Notes: a model not told the origin generated them from the letters alone. 64,000 nucleotides of DNA from Cylindrospermum sp. NIES-4074 (GCA_003994795.1 AP018269.1:1068725-1132724); one strand, 5' to 3'. Positions 2,421 to 49,292 are shown, numbered from the stretch's first letter. Program-made: numbers and translations.

Positions 2421-2717
2421 TTGGCTTTTATCCCATACCTGACATCAAGCATAGTGAGTGCTAAACGTCTACCAGAAACCATCGCTTATGTCAAAATTAC
2501 CCGCCAATCTTGGCAACACGGCTTTCTTGAAGGCGAAGTGAATGCGGGTGATTTTGAGTGGCATTTTCAGTGGCATTTCCGCCGGGGAGAACTTTCCGTT
2601 AAGCCTTCCCAAGGCCGCGCCTTAATTAAAGAACCCCTTGGTCGTTTTTTAGAACAGCAAGATTACCAGCTAGAGCCTGGAGGAGACTATGCTTTTACTA
2701 TTAGGGCTGAACTTTAG
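2421..2717 (+). CDS. hypothetical protein (98 aa)
   Basis: ORF only. It overlaps the convergent downstream gene by 4 bp. No recognisable motifs. Confidence 0.3.
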   Translation: MAFIPYLTSSIVSAKRLPETIAYVKITRQSWQHGFLEGEVNAGDFEWHFQWHFRRGELSVKPSQGRALIKEPLGRFLEQQDYQLEPGGDYAFTIRAEL

Positions 2718-3169
2718 TCATTAGTCATTAGACTGGTGGAAGTGAGGCGATTTAGGTATCTTTCGATTAGGAGGATGGCAACAATGTCATCTATGGGCCT
2801 TGGTGGCTGCCGTAAACCCTTTGGTAATAGCTTTGTGAGTCCTTGGGGTGGGTACATTAGCCAATAGCGATCGCGTGCTTCTAAGGTTGTGTAGCGCTCA
2901 TCCACTAAAATGATATTGAGCGACTGGGCTAGTTCTTGCTGTAGTTGCTGCTTCCACTGCTTGGCTGTGGTTTGGTTGCCCATCACCACTAAAGAAACAG
3001 GAAACTGTTGACACAGTGTCTCTAAAGTGGCGATCGCATCTTTTGCCGCTACCACCTGATGATAATATAGTTGCCGATCTAGTCCCATCACGGCGACACC
3101 ACACTTATCTCGACCTGGATCAAACCCTAAAATAACTGGTTGTGTCGGTGAAAATTCACGGTCATTCAT
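2714..3169 (-). CDS. YqgF/RuvX-like putative Holliday-junction resolvase / pre-16S rRNA nuclease
   Basis: 'ILGFDPGRDKCGVAV' matches the RuvX N-terminal 'LAFDFGTKSIGVAV' box. 'VDERYTTLEAR' and 'IDDIVAILLIERYL' match the RuvX 'DERLSTVEAR' and 'DSASAVIILESYF' boxes. Confidence 0.65.
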   Translation of the reverse strand: MNDREFSPTQPVILGFDPGRDKCGVAVMGLDRQLYYHQVVAAKDAIATLETLCQQFPVSLVVMGNQTTAKQWKQQLQQELAQSLNIILVDERYTTLEARDRYWLMYPPQGLTKLLPKGLRQPPRPIDDIVAILLIERYLNRLTSTSLMTND

Positions 3170-3210
3170 AAAATTAAAAATTAAAAATTAAAAATTAAAA
3201 AAATGTGCAT
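3168..3210. repeat. STRR-type heptamer tract (aaaatta x5)
   Basis: Tandem heptamers are directly visible. Confidence 0.8.
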
Positions 3211-3221
3211 TAATGGATTTT

Positions 3222-4775
3222 TTAAGTGCTAAATATAATTTTTCCGTTGAGTATTGCCACTAATTTTACTCTTAATGGCCCAGCTGTATAAGTGTCCTCT
3301 GCGGCGATCGCTTTAATTTCCAACGGCTGATCATATAACCTCAGTTGGGCGACAAAGCGCAAAAATGTCCCCTCAACTTGCACATCTTCCACAATTCCCG
3401 CATTCCGGGCACGAAATTGGGAAGCAGACATCAACAAATCTAGTCGCTGCCGCAGTTGATATGATGTCATGGTTTTCGGATCGGCGGTAGTTGTTGCTAG
3501 TAACTCACCTGCGGAAAAAACCCGTTGATTTCTCGCTGTATCAGCAAAAAACTCGATTTGCTTTTCTCCCCTGACATAATTGCCCGCAGAGAAAATTCTC
3601 ACGACGTATTCTCGACCATCATCAATTTGCTTGATCAATTGGTCAACTCTATCTTGAGTCACCTGGAGTATTTCTGCTTGAGAAGGATTTGTTCCCGGTT
3701 CAGTTAATGCAATATTGGCATTGCGGTTAGCTTCCTGTAAAAGTTGGATCACCGCCTGCCGGGCGACAGAGGCTTGACTAACACGAACCACAGCACCAGC
3801 TAGAACTTGACCGCGAACTAGGGCCAGTTTGCCCAGACGCAGGTCACGGTAAGACTGATAATATTTTTCTAGCCTGGCGACTTCCTGTTCTAGAGATTCC
3901 TGTTGTTTTTCCAATTCTTTGAGGCGAGATTCCCGTTTGGCAATTACTTGCTCCCGTTCGGCAATTTCTTGATTCCGGTCTTGAATCAGCCGATCTAATT
4001 GGGTAATTTTGCGATCGCGCACTTCTATAGATTCTTGGCGGTTAGCAAGTTCGCGATCGCGTTTTTCAATAGCTGCTTTAGCTTCGTCAATCGCTTTTTT
4101 AGCTTCAACGTATAGTCGTTCACGTTCTGCCCTCAGCTGTACAATTGCTGCTTGCAATGCCTTGCGCTGATCATAAACGCTTTGCAATTCAGCTATGGCT
4201 TTTTCATATTGAGTCACCACTTGACCAAGCTGACTTTGTGTGCGTTGGAGTTGCACTTGGGTTTTAGCTTGTTGGTTAATGGTGCGATTAAGTTGGGTTT
4301 GAGTTGCCTGTTGTTTAGCATTTGCGGCTTGCAATGACAGATTAATAGCCTGCAAGTCCTGCTGTGCCTTTGCTTGTTCTTTTTTTGCTTGGTTTAGCTC
4401 ATTTTCTACCTGACTTTTCTGGGTTTGGGCGGTTTTGAGCTGTTCCCGCTTGTGTCTGAGTTCTTTTTGAATATCTTCCAACTCAAAAACTCCCTTTCGC
4501 AACCCTTCATCAGCAGTAAATAAAATTGCTAGAGTTGATGCAGAAATCAAACCACCTGTAAGGATAGTTATCAGTACAGCAGTGTTTTTGGGACGTAGCT
4601 TGAATAGTGAGAGGCGTGCTTTGCCAACTCGTGTGCCGATGCGATCGCCCACGGTGGCAATTACGCCCCCCAAAATTAGAATTGCCACTATGAGGATGTA
4701 CCCAGCGTTCACCTTCATGGCAATTAGGCCCCCCAGAATTAGAATTGCCACTATGAGGATGTACCCAGTGGTCAT
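3222..4775 (-). CDS. DUF3084-type membrane-anchored coiled-coil protein
   Basis: N-terminal TM segment, long Q/E/K/R-rich coiled coil, and a conserved C-terminal domain typical of cyanobacterial DUF3084 proteins. The 5' end contains a roughly 60-bp tandem duplication (GYILIVAILILGG twice). Confidence 0.6.
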   Translation of the reverse strand: MTTGYILIVAILILGGLIAMKVNAGYILIVAILILGGVIATVGDRIGTRVGKARLSLFKLRPKNTAVLITILTGGLISASTLAILFTADEGLRKGVFELEDIQKELRHKREQLKTAQTQKSQVENELNQAKKEQAKAQQDLQAINLSLQAANAKQQATQTQLNRTINQQAKTQVQLQRTQSQLGQVVTQYEKAIAELQSVYDQRKALQAAIVQLRAERERLYVEAKKAIDEAKAAIEKRDRELANRQESIEVRDRKITQLDRLIQDRNQEIAEREQVIAKRESRLKELEKQQESLEQEVARLEKYYQSYRDLRLGKLALVRGQVLAGAVVRVSQASVARQAVIQLLQEANRNANIALTEPGTNPSQAEILQVTQDRVDQLIKQIDDGREYVVRIFSAGNYVRGEKQIEFFADTARNQRVFSAGELLATTTADPKTMTSYQLRQRLDLLMSASQFRARNAGIVEDVQVEGTFLRFVAQLRLYDQPLEIKAIAAEDTYTAGPLRVKLVAILNGKIIFST

Positions 4776-5122
4776 CTTCAGCTACCGTTCACTTAGTGTG
4801 CCAGAGGCATAATGCTTCCAGATACAGCCTACTACTTTCATCCGTTTTCTGTGGGTGAGTGGAGATTGGCAAGAGATGAAATTACTCAATTTTTAGATTT
4901 ACCTCCAATTGTGAGTGTCACTCAATTTTAGATTTTGAATTGATTCTATGCTATTGAGGCAGTAGCTCGAAAATCAGCATACCTTGTGCCTCGACGCAAA
5001 TGTTTTCTTTGTCTGGGTGTTATGCCAGATTATTTTGGATTCAGAGCCGATCAAGTCTTCATCCCCAATCCTGGCATCCAAAATCTAAAATCCCTATTGC
5101 CACCTCCATCCACCAGTTGCTT

Positions 5123-5794
5123 TTAAGTGAATTGCCTACTTAAAGTAACAGGTTTATGCACAGTAATCTTCTTTTTGTGGATGGAAATCATCTTCTTCTC
5201 ACGTAAATCCCCAAGTAATCTGGTGACTGTAACGCGAGTAGAGCCAATTGCTTCGGCGATCGCCTGATGAGATAGCTTGAGATCAATTGTGATCCCATCT
5301 GCACAAGGAACGCCAAAATCCCGACAGAGAATTAACAAAAAACTCACCAACCTGGAACCCATATCTCGGTGAGCGAGAGTTTCAATCATCATCTCTGTTT
5401 GTAAAATCCGCGAAGACAAACCCCGCAGCATTAACATTGATAACTCTGGATTCTCCTTGAGTGCCTGCTCCACTTGTTCAATGGGAGCTGACAACAATTC
5501 TACAGGGGTAAATGCAACCGCGTGGTAAAACCTATCTGACTTATTTCCCGTCAGCAACGACAACACACCAAAAACACTATTTTCCCGCAACAGCGCTACC
5601 GTTATTTCTTCTCCTGCTTCGTACACCCTGGAAAGTTTCACAGCACCCTTGAGAAGAAAATAAACTCGTTCGGCAGGATCGCCGGGAAAAAAGATCGTTT
5701 TATTGCGTTCAAACGTTTCTACAACCGGCGGAAACGCTCCGGTCGCCATTTGACGAAAAACATTTGCTAGGGCTTTATCTTGTGTCACGATCAT
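5123..5794 (-). CDS. ntcA: global nitrogen regulator NtcA (CRP/FNR family)
   Basis: Protein '[32 protein letters not shown]...[37 protein letters not shown]' matches Anabaena/Nostoc NtcA over its full length. Start taken at the MIVTQ methionine; the track ORF begins 6 codons earlier. Confidence 0.95.
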
Positions 5795-5882
5795 CTCCCT
5801 TCCCCTACCCAATGCCGGAAAAACAAAAACTGATTACCTAAGAATACACCTGAAAAATCAAGAATACACCGTCAACCTTTCT

Positions 5883-5896
5883 GTACTTTCCTATAC
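5883..5896. promoter_or_regulatory. candidate NtcA-binding box GTA-N8-TAC upstream of ntcA
   Basis: GTACTTTCCTATAC lies about 87 bp upstream of the ntcA start and matches the consensus GTAN8TAC. Confidence 0.35.
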
Positions 5897-6172
5897 TTAA
5901 ACTCACAACTTCATAGTTATTTGTTTATAATGATACATAATTATTGTAATTTACAGCTATTTCTTGGTGATTTGGCGTTCCACAGTCTTATTTTCCGAGT
6001 TTTTTTGCCGAAAAATTTCCCATATCTTGACAATATCTTAAGGAATAACTGGGCATTTTGTTGTGGCTAACACCCCTCTTGATCATCATTTTTGCAAATC
6101 CCATGCCCAACAAAGACAAACTACCCTCAGATTCTAGTATGCTCCTAATGATCGATCGCATTCACAATTTTT

Positions 6173-6949
6173 ATGCTTAATCTGTCCGGAAAAAACGCTC
6201 TTGTTACAGGTATTGCCAATAATCGCTCGATCGCCTGGGGCATCGCTCAACAACTGCACAAAGCAGGCGCGAACTTGGGCATTACCTACTTGCCAGATGA
6301 GCGCGGCAAGATGGAGAAAAAAGTCGCCGAGTTGGTAGAACCCCTCAACCCCAGCTTATTTCTTCCCTGTAATGTCCAAAACGACGAACAGATTCAGTCT
6401 ACCTTTGAGACTATTCGCGATCAGTGGGGCAGGCTAGATATCTTGATCCACTGTCTGGCCTTTGCTAACAAAGATGATTTAAGCGGAGGTTTTAGCCAAA
6501 CCTCTCGCGCTGGATTCAATCTCGCTTTAGAAGTCAGCACCTATTCACTAGCGCAATTAAGCGGTGCTGCTAAACCTCTGATGACAGAGGGCGGCAGCAT
6601 TATCACCCTCACATATTTAGGTGGCGTGAGAGCCATTCCCAATTACAATGTGATGGGAGTCGCTAAAGCAGGTTTAGAAGCAAGTGTGCGTTACTTAGCT
6701 GCTGAACTAGGCCCCCAAAATATCCGGGTGAATGCCATCTCAGCCGGGCCCATCCGCACTTTGGCATCTTCAGCAGTAGGCGGGATTTTGGATATGATTC
6801 ACCATGTAGAACAAGTGGCTCCCCTAAGACGCACTGTTACTCAACAAGAAGTGGGTAATACAGCAGCTTTCTTGTCTAGCGATTTGGCCAGCGGTATCAC
6901 TGGGCAAGTCCTGTATGTAGATGCAGGATATGAAATCATGGGTATGTAA
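6173..6949 (+). CDS. fabI: enoyl-[acyl-carrier-protein] reductase (NADH) FabI
   Basis: SDR fold 'ALVTGIANNRSIAWGIAQ...', with the FabI-typical Y-x6-K region and length. Confidence 0.9.
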   Translation: MLNLSGKNALVTGIANNRSIAWGIAQQLHKAGANLGITYLPDERGKMEKKVAELVEPLNPSLFLPCNVQNDEQIQSTFETIRDQWGRLDILIHCLAFANKDDLSGGFSQTSRAGFNLALEVSTYSLAQLSGAAKPLMTEGGSIITLTYLGGVRAIPNYNVMGVAKAGLEASVRYLAAELGPQNIRVNAISAGPIRTLASSAVGGILDMIHHVEQVAPLRRTVTQQEVGNTAAFLSSDLASGITGQVLYVDAGYEIMGM

Positions 6950-14000: not shown

Positions 14001-14857
14001 GAGTTAGGTTGCCCTTGTGGTCGTCCAAGTGCATCGGCAACCAGCGACACATCACGCATTTGCTGAACATCGTGGACTCGGAGGATATCAGCACCATTAA
14101 AAATGGCTGCACAACAAGCTGCTGCTGTTCCCCAAACTCGTGCTTTGGGGTCTGGTTGATTTAAGATGCGACCAATGAAACTTTTGCGGGATGCTCCGAC
14201 TAAAATAGGGCAGTTTAGCGATCGCAAAAATTGCAAGCGGCGAATTATTTCTAAATTTTGCTCATAGTTCTTGGCAAAGCCAATTCCAGGGTCAATGATG
14301 ATTTTTTCTTGGTCAATACCCGCAGCGGTTGCGGCTGTAATTTGCTGGGACAAGAAACTATAAATCTCCCCCAGCAAATCCTGATAATCGGTTTGCTGTT
14401 GCATCGTTTGGGGCGTTCCTCGGATGTGCATTAAGGCGATCGGCACATCTAATTTGGCGACTACTGGCAACATTTGGGAGTCAAATGTGCCCCCAGAAAT
14501 GTCATTAATCATATCCGCCCCAGCTTCTACAGATGCTTTAGCTACAGCGGCTCTAGTTGTATCTACAGAAATTGGGACTGAAATCTCAGGTCGTATTGCC
14601 TGCAACACAGACAGCACCCGGTCAAGTTCTTCTGTCAGAGTTATTTGCTCTGCCCCTGGACGGGTTGATTGACCCCCCACATCAATAATGTCAGCACCAG
14701 CCGCTACCATTGCCTGTGCTTGTGCTAAAGCAGTGGAGGCTGTGTTAAAGTCGCCACCATCACTAAAGCTATCTGGTGTGACATTTAAAATGCCCATTAG
14801 GTAAGTCCGCTGTCCCCACGCGAAACAGCGTCCCCGAAGAATTAAGTTATTTGACAT
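13997..14857 (-). CDS. folP: dihydropteroate synthase FolP
   Basis: 'GILNVTPDSFSDGG' and 'DIGGQSTRPGA' signatures. Start moved to the internal methionine 'MSNNLILRG'; the track ORF is 15 codons longer. Confidence 0.85.
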   Translation of the reverse strand: MSNNLILRGRCFAWGQRTYLMGILNVTPDSFSDGGDFNTASTALAQAQAMVAAGADIIDVGGQSTRPGAEQITLTEELDRVLSVLQAIRPEISVPISVDTTRAAVAKASVEAGADMINDISGGTFDSQMLPVVAKLDVPIALMHIRGTPQTMQQQTDYQDLLGEIYSFLSQQITAATAAGIDQEKIIIDPGIGFAKNYEQNLEIIRRLQFLRSLNCPILVGASRKSFIGRILNQPDPKARVWGTAAACCAAIFNGADILRVHDVQQMRDVSLVADALGRPQGQPNS

Positions 14858-44888: not shown

Positions 44889-45632
44889 ATGGGCATTTGG
44901 CATTGCTTGGTTGCCTCTGGCTTTCTCAGTTTTTTTATATCTGGCTGTGGTGATTCGGCAACCTCATCAACAGAAACTACTAAGCAAGTTGTCCAGGAAA
45001 CTAATGTCGCTCAACTGTTGACAGAAGCACAGTCTAGCCAAAAAGCAGAAGATTTATTTGCTCAAGGCAATAATTCATTAGACGCACAACGTTACCAAGA
45101 AGCGATCGCATCATACGACAAAGCGATCGCCATTAAGCAAGAAAACCCAGAAGCGTGGATTAATCGCGGCAATGCTTTAACAGCGTTACAACGTTATCAA
45201 GAAGCGATCGCATCATACGACAAAGCGATCGCCATTCAACCAGACAAAGATGAAGCCTGGTATAACCGTGGTAATAGCTTAACCTCTTTGCAGCGTTACC
45301 CAGAAGCAATTGCAGCCTTCGACAAAGCGATCGCCATTAAACCGCAAAAATATGAAGCCTGGACGAACAGAGGCATTGCCCTGACTAAGTTACAGCGTTA
45401 TAAAGAAGCACTGGCATCCTATAATGAAGCGATCGGCATCAAGCCAGACTTACACGCAGCATATTACAACAAAGCCTGCTCTTATGCATTACAGAGCGAT
45501 GTTGAATCAACAATTGAGAACTTAGAAAAAGCCATCCAACTAATTCCTAATAAATACCAGAAATTAGCCAAAACTGATTCAGATTTTGATAAAGTCCGCG
45601 ACGACAAGCGCTTTCAAGAATTGATTCAATAG
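44889..45632 (+). CDS. TPR-repeat protein (lipoprotein-like signal)
   Basis: Multiple 'YQEAIASYDKAIAI(K/Q)P' 34-aa units. Confidence 0.8.
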   Translation: MGIWHCLVASGFLSFFISGCGDSATSSTETTKQVVQETNVAQLLTEAQSSQKAEDLFAQGNNSLDAQRYQEAIASYDKAIAIKQENPEAWINRGNALTALQRYQEAIASYDKAIAIQPDKDEAWYNRGNSLTSLQRYPEAIAAFDKAIAIKPQKYEAWTNRGIALTKLQRYKEALASYNEAIGIKPDLHAAYYNKACSYALQSDVESTIENLEKAIQLIPNKYQKLAKTDSDFDKVRDDKRFQELIQ

Positions 45633-45914
45633 CAGAAATGCTAGACGACTGGAAGTCGCGGCTACAAGAACAAAGTCTGCCTCCGCAGACTCAAAGAATT
45701 TGAAACCTGCTGACATTAAAAATTGATATTTCTTTATTTAGTCCACGAAGGTGGACTTCGTTTGTGTAGCCGCGAATTACATTCGCCAGGGCTTCGTTCG
45801 TTTGTGTAGCCGCGAATTACATTTGCTAGGGCTATGATTATTATTCCCCAGAATAAAAATATACCATACTAAAATGAGTATCAACTCGAAAATATTTAAA
45901 ACCTTAAAATTTGT

Positions 45915-47261
45915 ATGTATAGTACGATATCTTGGCGTTGGGTTGCTGGCTTTAGTATTGTTGCCCTATCACTCACCAGTTGTAACAACCCCAAAACAGG
46001 GAGAGACATTGGCAACCAAGCCACAGAAAGCGAAGTTTTAATCAACTACACCGACAAACCAGGACAAAGTGCAGAATTTCTTAAAACACCGGAAATACAA
46101 CAGCAGTCTACAACAGGTGCAAATTCCCAAGCCGGTGATGCAGTTGGGACATTCAAACGGGGTATGCCAATAAATGTTTATGCAGAGTCAGAAGCTGCCC
46201 AAAAGGCGGAAGACTTTTACAATCAGGGTAATAATTACGCTGTTCAGCAAAACTATCAGCAAGCGATCGCCATCAAACCTGACTTGCATCAAGCTTGGAA
46301 TAACCGAGGTTTTGCCCTTAGTAAGTTACAACCCTACTCCGATGCGATCAGGAGCATCCTACTTTGGCAAATATATCTTTTCTGTCTGATGGTGGAATTA
46401 GGTTCTTACGGCTTAATGAGATATGTGTCTTCCACAATGGGATGCTCCCATGCGATCGCTTTTTCATATGATGCGATCGCCATCAAACCTGACTTGCATC
46501 AAGCTTGGTATGGTAGAGGCTATGCCCTTGATAAGCTAAAACGCTACGAAGATGCAATTGCATCGTATGAAAAAGCGCTCGCCATCAAACCTGACGATGC
46601 TGAGGCTTGGAATAACCGAGGTGTTGCCCTTGGTAAATTACAACGCGACGAAGATGCGATCGCATCCTTTGATAAAGCGATCGCCATCAAACCTGACTAT
46701 GCTGAGGCTTGGTATAACCGAGGTTTTGCCTTTGGTAAGTTACAACGCTACTCCGAAGTGATCGCATCATATGAAAAAGGGCTCGCCATCAAACCTGACT
46801 ATGCTGATGCTTGGCATAACCGAGGTTTTGCCCTTGGTAAGTTACAACGCTACGAAGATGCGATCGCATCATATGAAAAAGCGATCGCCATCAAACCTGA
46901 CTATGCTGATGCTTGGCTATGCCGAGGTGTTACCCTTGGTAAGTTACAACGCTACGAAGATGCGATCACATCATACGACAAAGCGATCGCCATCAAACCT
47001 AACTATGCCTTAGCTTGGAATAACCGAGGTGTTGCCCTTGATAACTTACAACGCTACTCCGATGCGATCGCATCCTATGAAAAAGCGATCGCCATCAAAC
47101 CTGACAAATATGGAGCTTGGAATAACCGAGGTATTGCCCTTGGTGAGTTAAAACGCTATGAAGAAGCGCTCAAATCTTTTGATAAAGCAATTAGTATTAA
47201 CCCTAATTATCAATTAGCAATAAATAATCGCAAAGAGGTATTGAAACAACTAGGGCGTTAA
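45915..47261 (+). CDS. TPR-repeat protein carrying an in-frame 108-bp insertion (36 aa) that interrupts repeat 2
   Basis: Regular 34-aa TPR units ('AIAIKPDYAEAW(N/Y)NRGxALGKLQRY(E/S)DAIASYEK') except for 'RSILLWQIYLFCLMVELGSYGLMRYVSSTMGCSHAIAF', encoded by 46350..46457. Confidence 0.75.
   Translation: MYSTISWRWVAGFSIVALSLTSCNNPKTGRDIGNQATESEVLINYTDKPGQSAEFLKTPEIQQQSTTGANSQAGDAVGTFKRGMPINVYAESEAAQKAEDFYNQGNNYAVQQNYQQAIAIKPDLHQAWNNRGFALSKLQPYSDAIRSILLWQIYLFCLMVELGSYGLMRYVSSTMGCSHAIAFSYDAIAIKPDLHQAWYGRGYALDKLKRYEDAIASYEKALAIKPDDAEAWNNRGVALGKLQRDEDAIASFDKAIAIKPDYAEAWYNRGFAFGKLQRYSEVIASYEKGLAIKPDYADAWHNRGFALGKLQRYEDAIASYEKAIAIKPDYADAWLCRGVTLGKLQRYEDAITSYDKAIAIKPNYALAWNNRGVALDNLQRYSDAIASYEKAIAIKPDKYGAWNNRGIALGELKRYEEALKSFDKAISINPNYQLAINNRKEVLKQLGR
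46350..46449. mobile_element. 100-bp miniature inverted-repeat element inserted in the TPR gene (terminal inverted repeats GGAGCATCC, 8-bp target duplication ATGCGATC)
   Basis: Left end 'aggagcatcc' at 46350..46359 and right end 'gggatgctccc' at 46439..46449 are inverted repeats. 'atgcgatc' is present at 46342..46349 and 46450..46457. Confidence 0.6.
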
Positions 47262-48414: not shown

Positions 48415-48753
48415 ATGGCTAAACCCTATAGTGATGATTTCCGGCAAAAGGTTATGCAAGCGATCGAATTGGACGGTCTCAAGAAGTGTGAGGCAAGCCT
48501 TCTGTTCAATATTAGTCGCAATACAATTAACTTGTGGTGTCAACGCAAAGCCGAAACGGGTGATGTCAAACCTAAACAGAGGAAAGCATCGCCGCAGAAG
48601 GGCAAAATTAGGGATTGGGAGAAGTTTCGCACATTTGTCAAAGCGCAAGGGGATAAAACCCAAAGTGAAATGGCACAGCTATGGGATGGACAGATTAGCC
48701 AACGCACAATTTCCAGGGCTTTGCAAAAGATAGGACATACTCGTAAAAAAAAA
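48415..48753 (+). CDS. IS630 transposase OrfA (copy 2), up to the A9 tract
   Basis: 'MAKPYSDDFRQKVMQAIELDG...' HTH part, homologous to the copy 1 OrfA. Confidence 0.75.
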
Positions 48754-48854
48754 CATACGGATATAGTCAACGAGATGAAGCCAAGCGGGCAGCATTCTTA
48801 ACGCAACTGGAGAACCCCAAAGCGCCGCACCTAGTATATGTTGATGAGTCTGGT

Positions 48855-49292
48855 ATGGATGAACGCGATAATTACGGTTACGGATACTCCCCTGTTGGAG
48901 AACGCTTTTACGACCTCAAATCAGGTTGTCGCAAGGGTCGCATCAATATGATTGCTGGCTATCGAGATGGACAACTAATTGCGCCATTTACGATTGAGGG
49001 GGCGTGTAACCGTACCGTGTTTGAAACCTGGTTAGAAACTTGCTTGATTCCGATGCTACGACCCGGTGAGTGGGTGATTGTCGATAATGCTACCTTTCAT
49101 CGTGGCGGTCGGATTGCTCAATTAATTGAAGAGGCAGGGTGTCAGTTAGTTTACCTACCGCCTTATTCACCTGATCTCAATCGCATTGAAAAGTGTTGGG
49201 CCACTTTGAAAAGTAGGGTTCGCAAGATTTTATCCACATCGGATAATTTACGTGATGCAATGGAAATCGTTCTCAAGCAAGCAGCGTCCTAA
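48855..49292 (+). CDS. IS630 transposase OrfB (copy 2). It is in the -1 frame relative to OrfA and likely begins at the A9 tract.
   Basis: 'VIVDNATFHRGG...YLPPYSPDLNRIEKCWATLK' DDE signature. The stop lies in the right inverted repeat. Confidence 0.75.
   Translation: MDERDNYGYGYSPVGERFYDLKSGCRKGRINMIAGYRDGQLIAPFTIEGACNRTVFETWLETCLIPMLRPGEWVIVDNATFHRGGRIAQLIEEAGCQLVYLPPYSPDLNRIEKCWATLKSRVRKILSTSDNLRDAMEIVLKQAAS

Follow-up and report, generated by a model that had tools for sequence, protein, structure and literature searches.

In Cylindrospermum sp. NIES-4074, a gene for a TPR lipoprotein has very probably been remodelled by three changes that arose in its own lineage: the insertion of a MITE presumably mobilised by an ISKra4-type transposase, the inversion of a 13-bp spacer bounded by two HIP1 palindromes, and a deletion running from one HIP1 to another. 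HIP1 (GCGATCGC) is a hyper-abundant, methylated palindrome. Each of these components is a known, ordinary kind of mutation; the finding itself is real and neatly polarised. The gene is located in a stretch of 64,000 nucleotides that was analysed as a whole (the window), on the plus strand at 45915..47261, and its 448-aa ORF encodes a predicted lipoprotein. The predicted layout comprises a signal peptide with a lipobox (LTSC, read from the sequence), a low-complexity linker and an array of TPR repeats, seven stretches of which are matched by Pfam TPR_1 (E 1.7e-77). Seven regular TPR repeats are left downstream of the insert, and the ORF is uninterrupted across it.

The insert occupies 46350..46449 (plus strand) and is flanked by two copies of the octamer ATGCGATC, at 46342..46349 and 46450..46457, which match at 8/8 positions; the right copy shares bases with the left one of the two HIP1 that bound the inversion. 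The left terminal inverted repeat (46350..46376) includes the perfect core GGAGCATCC at 46351-46359, the family consensus being GGGAGCATCCCAYTTTGGCAAATAT, and the right one (46423..46449) includes the perfect core GGATGCTCC at 46440-46448, followed by C. Beyond the perfect 9-bp core, a repeat finder extends imperfect arms to 26 nt at 73% complementarity. An earlier note, made from the sequence alone, had described a 100-bp insert with 9-bp terminal inverted repeats and an 8-bp duplication, and this description holds base for base; insert and one duplicate add up to 108 bp, and the ORF reads through, as it had also stated. The in-frame translation of the element is RSILLWQIYLFCLMVELGSYGLMRYVSSTMGCS. 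Compared with the family termini (G-GGAGCATCCCA.../...TGGGATGCTCC-C), the left end of the window copy is mutated at positions 1 (G>A) and 11 (C>T). A profile built from 121 foreign copies matches the window once, at 46351-46449 (E 5.7e-12), and a profile of the closest subfamily matches the same element with E 2.5e-21. The match is more than chance, and the insert is a bona fide MITE copy with the boundaries that the earlier note had given. A second GGAGCATCC occurs in the window at 14189; it is a lone half-site, judged to be due to chance and rejected as a second element. A structured-RNA reading of the MITE was also rejected: Rfam has no family for the insert region, and folding is no better than in shuffled sequences (z -0.33).

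The derived state of the three changes emerges from comparison with positional orthologues. Exact-protein look-ups gave no record for the TPR gene or its upstream paralogue, and a word-indexed homologue search with the N-terminal 145 aa of the host protein gave no match; the latter result reflects a limit of sensitivity, because orthologues could be reached through synteny of the downstream gene. This SDR/RmlD-like gene has 83-84% identity to its nearest named relatives (Cylindrospermum stagnale PCC 7417, Cylindrospermum sp. FACHB-282 and Komarekiella), and the gene order is conserved, with a 247-aa TPR lipoprotein followed by one or two larger TPR lipoproteins and then by the SDR gene. The positional orthologues of the host gene in Cylindrospermum, assigned by synteny and alignment (L127:3728-4951 and L125:3343-4830), are 60-71% identical overall. 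The larger Cylindrospermum TPR lipoproteins contain the N-terminal domain of the window protein and lack the 36-residue insert, reading ...YS[DE]AI[AT]SY[DE]KAIAIKPD at its position. The left flank of the insert (46263-46349) is identical to L127 4238-4324 at 83 of 87 positions, up to the insertion point, and the octamer ATGCGATC is present once, without insert, at the orthologous site. The empty site that the earlier note had proposed to look for in relatives thus exists, and the alignment rules out the 36 aa as an ancestral domain. When 46350-46457 is removed and 46460-46472 is re-inverted, the window sequence is identical to L127 at 115 of 121 positions. Since the orthologues are canonical, free of the insert and in possession of the seven residues absent from the first repeat of the window protein, this alignment places the insertion, the inversion and the HIP1-to-HIP1 deletion as derived in the window lineage.

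The element belongs to a family that is widespread in cyanobacteria. One genome of each prokaryotic species was scanned for the two termini at a spacing typical of MITEs, which yielded at least 119 loci. Of the 80 records listed, about 75 come from cyanobacteria, against some 16 chance matches by our own estimate. Nearly all of the matches listed come from filamentous or pleurocapsalean genera (Nostoc, Calothrix, Nodularia, Fischerella, Moorena, Symploca, Caldora, Coleofasciculus and Xenococcaceae), and several genomes among them have two to seven loci each (e.g., Symploca SIO2E6 and Moorena producens 3L). The family element takes the form G-GGAGCATCCCAWTTT...AAAWTGGGATGCTCC-C with a length of 89-116 bp, and its termini are conserved across the 121 foreign copies; among the matches listed, G precedes the core in 113 of 119 copies and C follows it in 111 of 119. 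Of the 119 listed copies, 70 are flanked by 8-bp duplications with no more than one mismatch (perfect in 54), and their register is that seen in the window. Homology of the window copy to copies from other orders extends over its full length. The closest copy among the matches listed, from Nodularia (L027:4379-4478), is 85% identical to the window copy end to end, compared with 80% for a Moorena copy (L022) and 79% for a Xenococcaceae copy (L037). The search for other copies proposed by the earlier note is therefore borne out across genomes, with at least 119 loci and duplications at 70 of 119, whereas the 64-kb window itself has one copy. No ISKra4 transposase or other transposase similarity is present within the window. 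A literature search gave no name for the family, the papers on Nezha and on the MITEa-e elements of Anabaena PCC 7120 lying outside its reach, and a search with the terminal sequence returned unrelated primers only. This cyanobacterial MITE family may be undescribed and is apparently unnamed.

The target duplications of the family are AT-rich, with a mean G+C of 31% over the 70 duplications, and GATC occurs in none of them (0/70). The family has no HIP1-like target preference of the kind that had been suggested for the element. A small mobile repeat of Nostocaceae with such a relation to HIP1 is SDR5, which is reported to insert between nucleotides 3 and 4 of the palindrome (Elhai et al., 2008, as relayed in PMC4390886 and PMC5861425). 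As far as SDR5 is described in those two sources, the window MITE resembles it in being a small mobile repeat that breaks a HIP1 in a Nostocaceae genome, and differs in having long terminal inverted repeats and an 8-bp duplication that ends after nucleotide 6 of HIP1 (GCGATC). Insertion between nucleotides 3 and 4 combined with a preference for HIP1, the hallmark of SDR5 in those accounts, is not what the window MITE displays.

Long-range pairing of termini within the set of at least 119 loci disclosed no full-length IS, and neither the window copy nor the Moorena copy gave a match in BLAST searches of plasmids. With a Nostoc-type copy as query, the same kind of search yielded terminal-only matches that lead to an IS. 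In three records the terminal matches lie 75 bp from a conserved 136-aa ORF, and in Allocoleopsis franciscana PCC 7113 the match adjoins a gene annotated as 'ISKra4-like element ISMic1 family transposase'. Full elements are found on a plasmid of Allocoleopsis PCC 7113 (L124 4001-5773, 1773 bp, with the 8-bp duplication TTCTGTAT) and on a plasmid of Fischerella NIES-4106 (L123 4001-5775, 1775 bp, also with an 8-bp duplication); a third record, L122, is an internal-deletion derivative of 918 bp. Their inverted ends are 22-24 bp long (GGGAGCATCCCAATTKTGCAA), and the 284-aa ORF of the IS scores 266 bits against NCBIfam NF033572 (ISKra4 family transposase), above the cut-off of 205. MITE and full IS have in common termini with at least 12 identical nucleotides and a duplication length of 8 bp; the identity covers the terminal 12-24 nt (GGGAGCATCCCA...). 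In contrast to the ISKra4/ISMic1-like IS, the MITE measures 100 bp, has no coding capacity, differs throughout its interior, which is unrelated, and has two substitutions at its left end. As judged from its sequence, the MITE is a non-autonomous derivative of an ISKra4-family (ISMic1-like) IS, an assignment consistent with the family alignment, the nhmmer profile and the family scan, and its mobilisation by an ISKra4 transposase is predicted.

With inverted termini, a fixed 8-bp duplication, a small size without a transposase gene, dispersed copies and an empty site, the insert has all of the MITE features that were looked for. The earlier note's proposal of a mobile element that duplicated 8 bp of its target is supported by the family of at least 119 loci, by the duplication statistics, by the autonomous ISKra4-family partner with the same ends and by the empty site in the orthologues. 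The sequence evidence demonstrates a MITE of the cut-and-paste type, with ISKra4-type ends and an 8-bp staggered target. An ISKra4-family (ISMic1-like) transposase acting in trans would have bound the shared termini (GGGAGCATCCCA...) and cut the target with an 8-bp stagger, the repair of which would have duplicated ATGCGATC. The 100-bp MITE thereby entered the second TPR repeat, and the gene now encodes 36 additional residues of strong hydrophobicity midway along helix B. The ORF remains open because 108 is a multiple of three and because the frame used happens to be one of three that are stop-free. The event is hardly one 'caught in the act', nor an 'innovation', as had been proposed: the window copy differs by 15% from its nearest listed relative, and its termini are mutated.

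The second change lies next to the insert, with only GC between the end of the right duplicate (46457) and the inverted 13-mer. Two perfect HIP1 octamers, at 46452..46459 and 46473..46480, bound the inversion on the left and on the right, and the spacer between them (46460..46472, plus strand) reads TTTTTCATATGAT, the exact reverse complement of the canonical ATCATATGAAAAA, which lies between the HIP1 pair at 46860/46881. The window has five further HIP1-N13-HIP1 sites, and each of them shows the canonical ATC...AAA form (5/5). Compared with the Cylindrospermum FACHB-282 orthologue, the 13-mer is identical at 12 of 13 positions after re-inversion and at 4 of 13 as found. The micro-inversion noticed earlier between two HIP1 palindromes is therefore exact, and it is a derived one. 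In the protein, AIASYEKAIA has become AIAFSYDAIA, with SY shifted by one position.

The third change had escaped the earlier note, in which the protein was regarded as perfectly periodic apart from the insert. At a single HIP1 (46263..46270) in the first TPR, which stands in place of a pair, seven residues (the SYxKAIA heptad) are absent: the window reads NYQQAIAIKPD, with the junction after NYQQAIA, where three orthologues/paralogues read NYQQAIASYE[KR]AIAIKPD. Whether the loss between HIP1 sites amounted to 21 bp (SYxKAIA) or to 123 bp (a whole repeat and 21 bp more) is ambiguous, because repeat shuffling blurs repeat-level orthology inside TPR arrays. In both HIP1-bounded changes the breakpoints lie in HIP1 octamers, and both are derived relative to relatives.

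Template-switch (quasipalindrome) micro-inversions convert a short segment into its exact reverse complement between short inverted repeats, with the length kept. The window inversion resembles them and may be of this kind, the two HIP1 copies playing the part of the inverted repeats. Because HIP1 is self-complementary, two copies 13 bp apart count as 8-bp repeats in direct and in inverted orientation alike. The spacer in GCGATCGC-N13-GCGATCGC, the DNA for AIA-SYEK-AIA, would most likely have been turned into its reverse complement by hairpin formation or template switching during replication or gap repair. In the first repeat, slippage between HIP1 octamers serving as direct repeats would have led to the loss of 21 or 123 bp. 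Deletion and inversion are both automatically frame-neutral, since the HIP1 pairs here are spaced by multiples of three. Illegitimate or site-specific recombination linked to HIP1 has been described (Robinson et al., 1997; Akiyama et al., 1998, summarised in PMC4390886). As far as that summary goes, the window events share end points at GCGATCGC with the reported cases, and the deletion in the first repeat would be of the same kind as HIP1-to-HIP1 excisions reported experimentally; unlike what is summarised there, the inversion affects a 13-bp spacer in a chromosomal gene and is one natural case with no measured rate. A literature search retrieved no report of a HIP1-pair spacer inversion.

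The proximity of insertion and inversion raises the question of whether they could be one coupled event, in which a HIP1 hairpin drew the transposase, or in which gap filling met the hairpin and switched template. Only 2 bp separate two rare changes, and the left HIP1 partly coincides with the right duplicate; of 27 comparable HIP1-N13-HIP1 sites, this is the only one with an inverted spacer; and the target octamer in the window, with a G+C of 50% against the family mean, is atypical. However, this is one case, and no second family copy is polarised against an empty site. Moreover, an independent HIP1-HIP1 deletion occurred 190 bp upstream, where there is no MITE, which points to a general instability of HIP1 pairs. 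Any link between insertion and inversion, like the order of the events, can thus be suggested only tentatively, and a coupled origin seems unlikely. Somewhat less probable still is that, in place of template switching, the DNA was cut at both HIP1 sites and rejoined, or underwent site-specific recombination there. HIP1 contains CGATCG and GATC, which are targets of some endonucleases, and both breakpoints fall inside perfect HIP1 octamers. Yet because HIP1 is palindromic, the breakpoints can be placed only within the octamers, and this fits any mechanism that uses 8-bp inverted repeats.

The inversion is the sole mildly unusual component of the locus, and it is a single case. The 27 HIP1-N13-HIP1 sites, found in 1.04 Mb, all lie in a TPR AIA-SYxK-AIA context, and the only inverted one is that of the window (1/27), which does not sustain the view of HIP1-driven inversion as a general process that had been put forward. 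Metagenome scans for a recurrent inversion found 0 inverted against only 5 canonical matches, a comparison without statistical power. A wider proposal would be that HIP1 pairs encoding the TPR AIA...AIA motif are hot spots for frame-neutral micro-rearrangements and that HIP1 drives the diversification of repeat proteins; at present this is an improbable conjecture. Such a class of hot-spot events would take in spacer inversion, the deletion of 21 bp or of a whole repeat and, perhaps, transposon insertion targeted by a hairpin or coupled to repair. If the proposal were true, this gene, with its three derived events in 220 bp, would bear the first natural footprint of HIP1-driven diversification.

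The retention of the reading frame, which had been regarded as notable, is to be expected in about half of the cases for the window copy. Insert and duplication sum to 100+8 = 108 bp and 3 of the 6 combinations of frame and orientation are stop-free, so that frame retention would need no selection in roughly half of intragenic insertions. The insert lies between I21 and A22 of the 34-residue TPR motif (A1 E2 A3 W4 ... A20 I21 A22 S23 Y24 ... P32), a register inferred from that of Pfam TPR_1, and it would therefore be placed inside helix B of the second TPR repeat, not in a loop. This position, after TPR residue 21, disagrees with the 'new surface loop' that had been envisaged, as does the hydrophobicity of the peptide (RSILLWQIYLFCLMVELGSYGLM...), where the 19-residue Kyte-Doolittle mean of the protein peaks (1.64). 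A single-sequence AlphaFold2 model, run without an alignment, reached a mean pLDDT of 45, too poor for any structural claim.

In-frame fusions of MITEs with ORFs are well known, with the Rickettsia palindromic elements (RPEs) as the extreme case (PMC10969869), and cyanobacteria are rich in MITEs (PMC11602168). Like RPEs, the window element is a short palindromic element within a coding gene, where it keeps the frame and adds a peptide, and members of its family are found in several unrelated host genes. RPEs, however, are found mostly in frame inside genes (PMC10969869), whereas the MITE family is mostly intergenic. Length plus 8 is a multiple of three for 45 of the 122 copies, a share that shows no bias, and a long ORF reads through only about 5 of 121 foreign copies, in CHAT-domain genes (L040, and L054 with two copies) and a WD40 gene (L077). 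A family-wide bias towards in-frame insertion, as in RPEs, is thus not observed. It has been proposed for RPEs that the inserted peptide is exapted, and the MITE peptide could likewise serve, e.g., as a membrane anchor or interaction segment whose open frame is under selection. The host ORF is indeed intact, and no other stretch of the protein is as hydrophobic as the peptide. When 1.84 billion representative proteins were searched exhaustively by HMMER with the 36 residues, 4 matches resulted, one of which is unrelated low complexity and one a 75-aa spurious ORF, leaving 2-3 real proteins or clusters; a padded peptide-profile search recovered the spurious 75-aa ORF only. The real matches represent the same subfamily in the same frame, in a GUN4-domain protein, where a duplicated RNQ flanks the peptide, and in a 294-aa protein, and the same subfamily and frame recur in CHAT-type proteins. 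Family copies also have more open frames than shuffled controls (1.68 vs. 1.06 of 6), an excess that carries little weight since the copies are related and non-independent and the shuffled control is crude. Against exaptation stand the prior for frame retention, the lack of length bias, the rarity of read-through and of real protein matches given above, and the fact that the insert breaks helix B. Selection for the peptide is accordingly very unlikely, and an ordinary MITE insertion that happened to leave the frame open is the better account.

An assembly or sequencing artefact in the insert or in the flipped 13-mer has a negligible probability: TPR repeats do fragment short-read assemblies, and that of a near-identical strain (Logan DRR315839/DRR315840), whose downstream gene is identical, is broken inside the gene, but a misassembly would not produce an entire family element whose termini are exact and whose single-copy target is perfectly duplicated over 8 bp, and a 13-bp exact reverse complement between intact flanks corresponds to no known assembler or base-calling error.

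The locus reveals a widespread MITE family tied to ISKra4/ISMic1-type transposases. The HIP1-bounded inversion and deletion provide natural evidence that pairs of HIP1 can serve both as inverted and as direct repeats in illegitimate recombination, and they bear on the long-open question of the role of HIP1, within the bounds of one locus and with no new mechanism or function. The gene exemplifies, in clean and fully polarised form, the reshaping of repeat-protein genes in filamentous cyanobacteria by small mobile elements and short palindromes while the ORF stays unbroken.

The TPR lipoprotein gene that carries the 100-bp MITE (45915..47261, + strand) differs from its relatives already in its first TPR. 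Here the window reads NYQQAIA|IKPD and retains a single HIP1 (46263-46270), whereas all Cylindrospermum orthologues have NYQQAIASYE[KR]AIAIKPD and a HIP1 pair at the same place. The window gene has lost 21 bp (or 123 bp) here with the reading frame kept, and both ends of the deletion are within HIP1 octamers.

The gene lies downstream of a tandem paralogue of 247 aa (window 44889-45632), which has a lipoprotein signal with an ISGC lipobox, followed by a QKAEDLF..GNN linker and then TPRs containing HIP1 pairs (45102/45123 and 45204/45225). The length and position of this paralogue are kept in both Cylindrospermum genomes. In C. stagnale PCC 7417 (locus L125), the orthologue of the MITE-bearing gene is 496 aa long (3343-4830). 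The C-terminal cap occurs an additional time in the middle of this protein, with the linker after it (…SINPDDQIAINNRETLLKLLGRMPINVYAGSETVQKAEDFFNQGNDY…); two tandem TPR lipoprotein genes seem to have fused here. Another paralogue, of 373 aa, is located upstream of this orthologue. Together, the fusion-like orthologue and the extra paralogue point to a locus in which both arrays and genes rearrange rapidly.

The intergenic region between the two TPR lipoprotein genes of the window (45646-45835) also contains repeats. It comprises two 37-nt tandem copies (45757-45793 and 45797-45833, 95% identical) and an imperfect inverted repeat of 49 nt (45646-45694 / 45737-45785, 76%), within which a hairpin, AGTCCAC-GAAG-GTGGACT, is found. 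A match to the Rfam model CRISPR-DR28 at 45739-45762 is weak and sub-threshold. The region looks like another small repeat element; no further copies occur in the 64-kb window.

Downstream, an IS630-family transposase is split into two ORFs (48415-48801 and 48855-49292, within 48415-49292), the first of which matches NF033545 with an E of 1e-10 and a score under the model cut-off. The split transposase is flanked by an SDR/RmlD-like gene and a Thg1-like gene. Because these two genes are side by side in C. stagnale PCC 7417, the insertion is lineage-specific, a second such mobile-element event, close to the MITE.

A full-length ISMic1-like element, with its neighbour, is present on plasmid pMIC7113.04 of Allocoleopsis PCC 7113 (L124, 3249-5773). 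Its transposase spans two frames (ORFs of 71 aa and 284 aa) annotated as a single CDS. A second ORF of 136 aa, with no match in Pfam or NCBIfam, is conserved and is retained in a 918-bp deletion derivative (L122). The neighbouring CDS, annotated 'ATP-binding protein', has its start within the IS end. In a Xenococcaceae MAG (L054), two MITE-family copies are read through by a single CHAT-domain open frame of 1184 codons (2686-6237, - strand); one copy lies inside the CHAT-model match and is translated in the frame that the window copy also uses (SIPFWLIYFFRWTVESGLYSLMRYAFSKMGCS).

Among the family copies (L001-L119), members of the 100-bp subfamily are 79-85% identical from end to end across cyanobacterial orders, the figure covering Nostocales, Oscillatoriales-type Moorena and Pleurocapsales-type Xenococcaceae. 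This is high for non-coding DNA at inter-order distances, and suggests that the MITE, or its IS, has spread horizontally.
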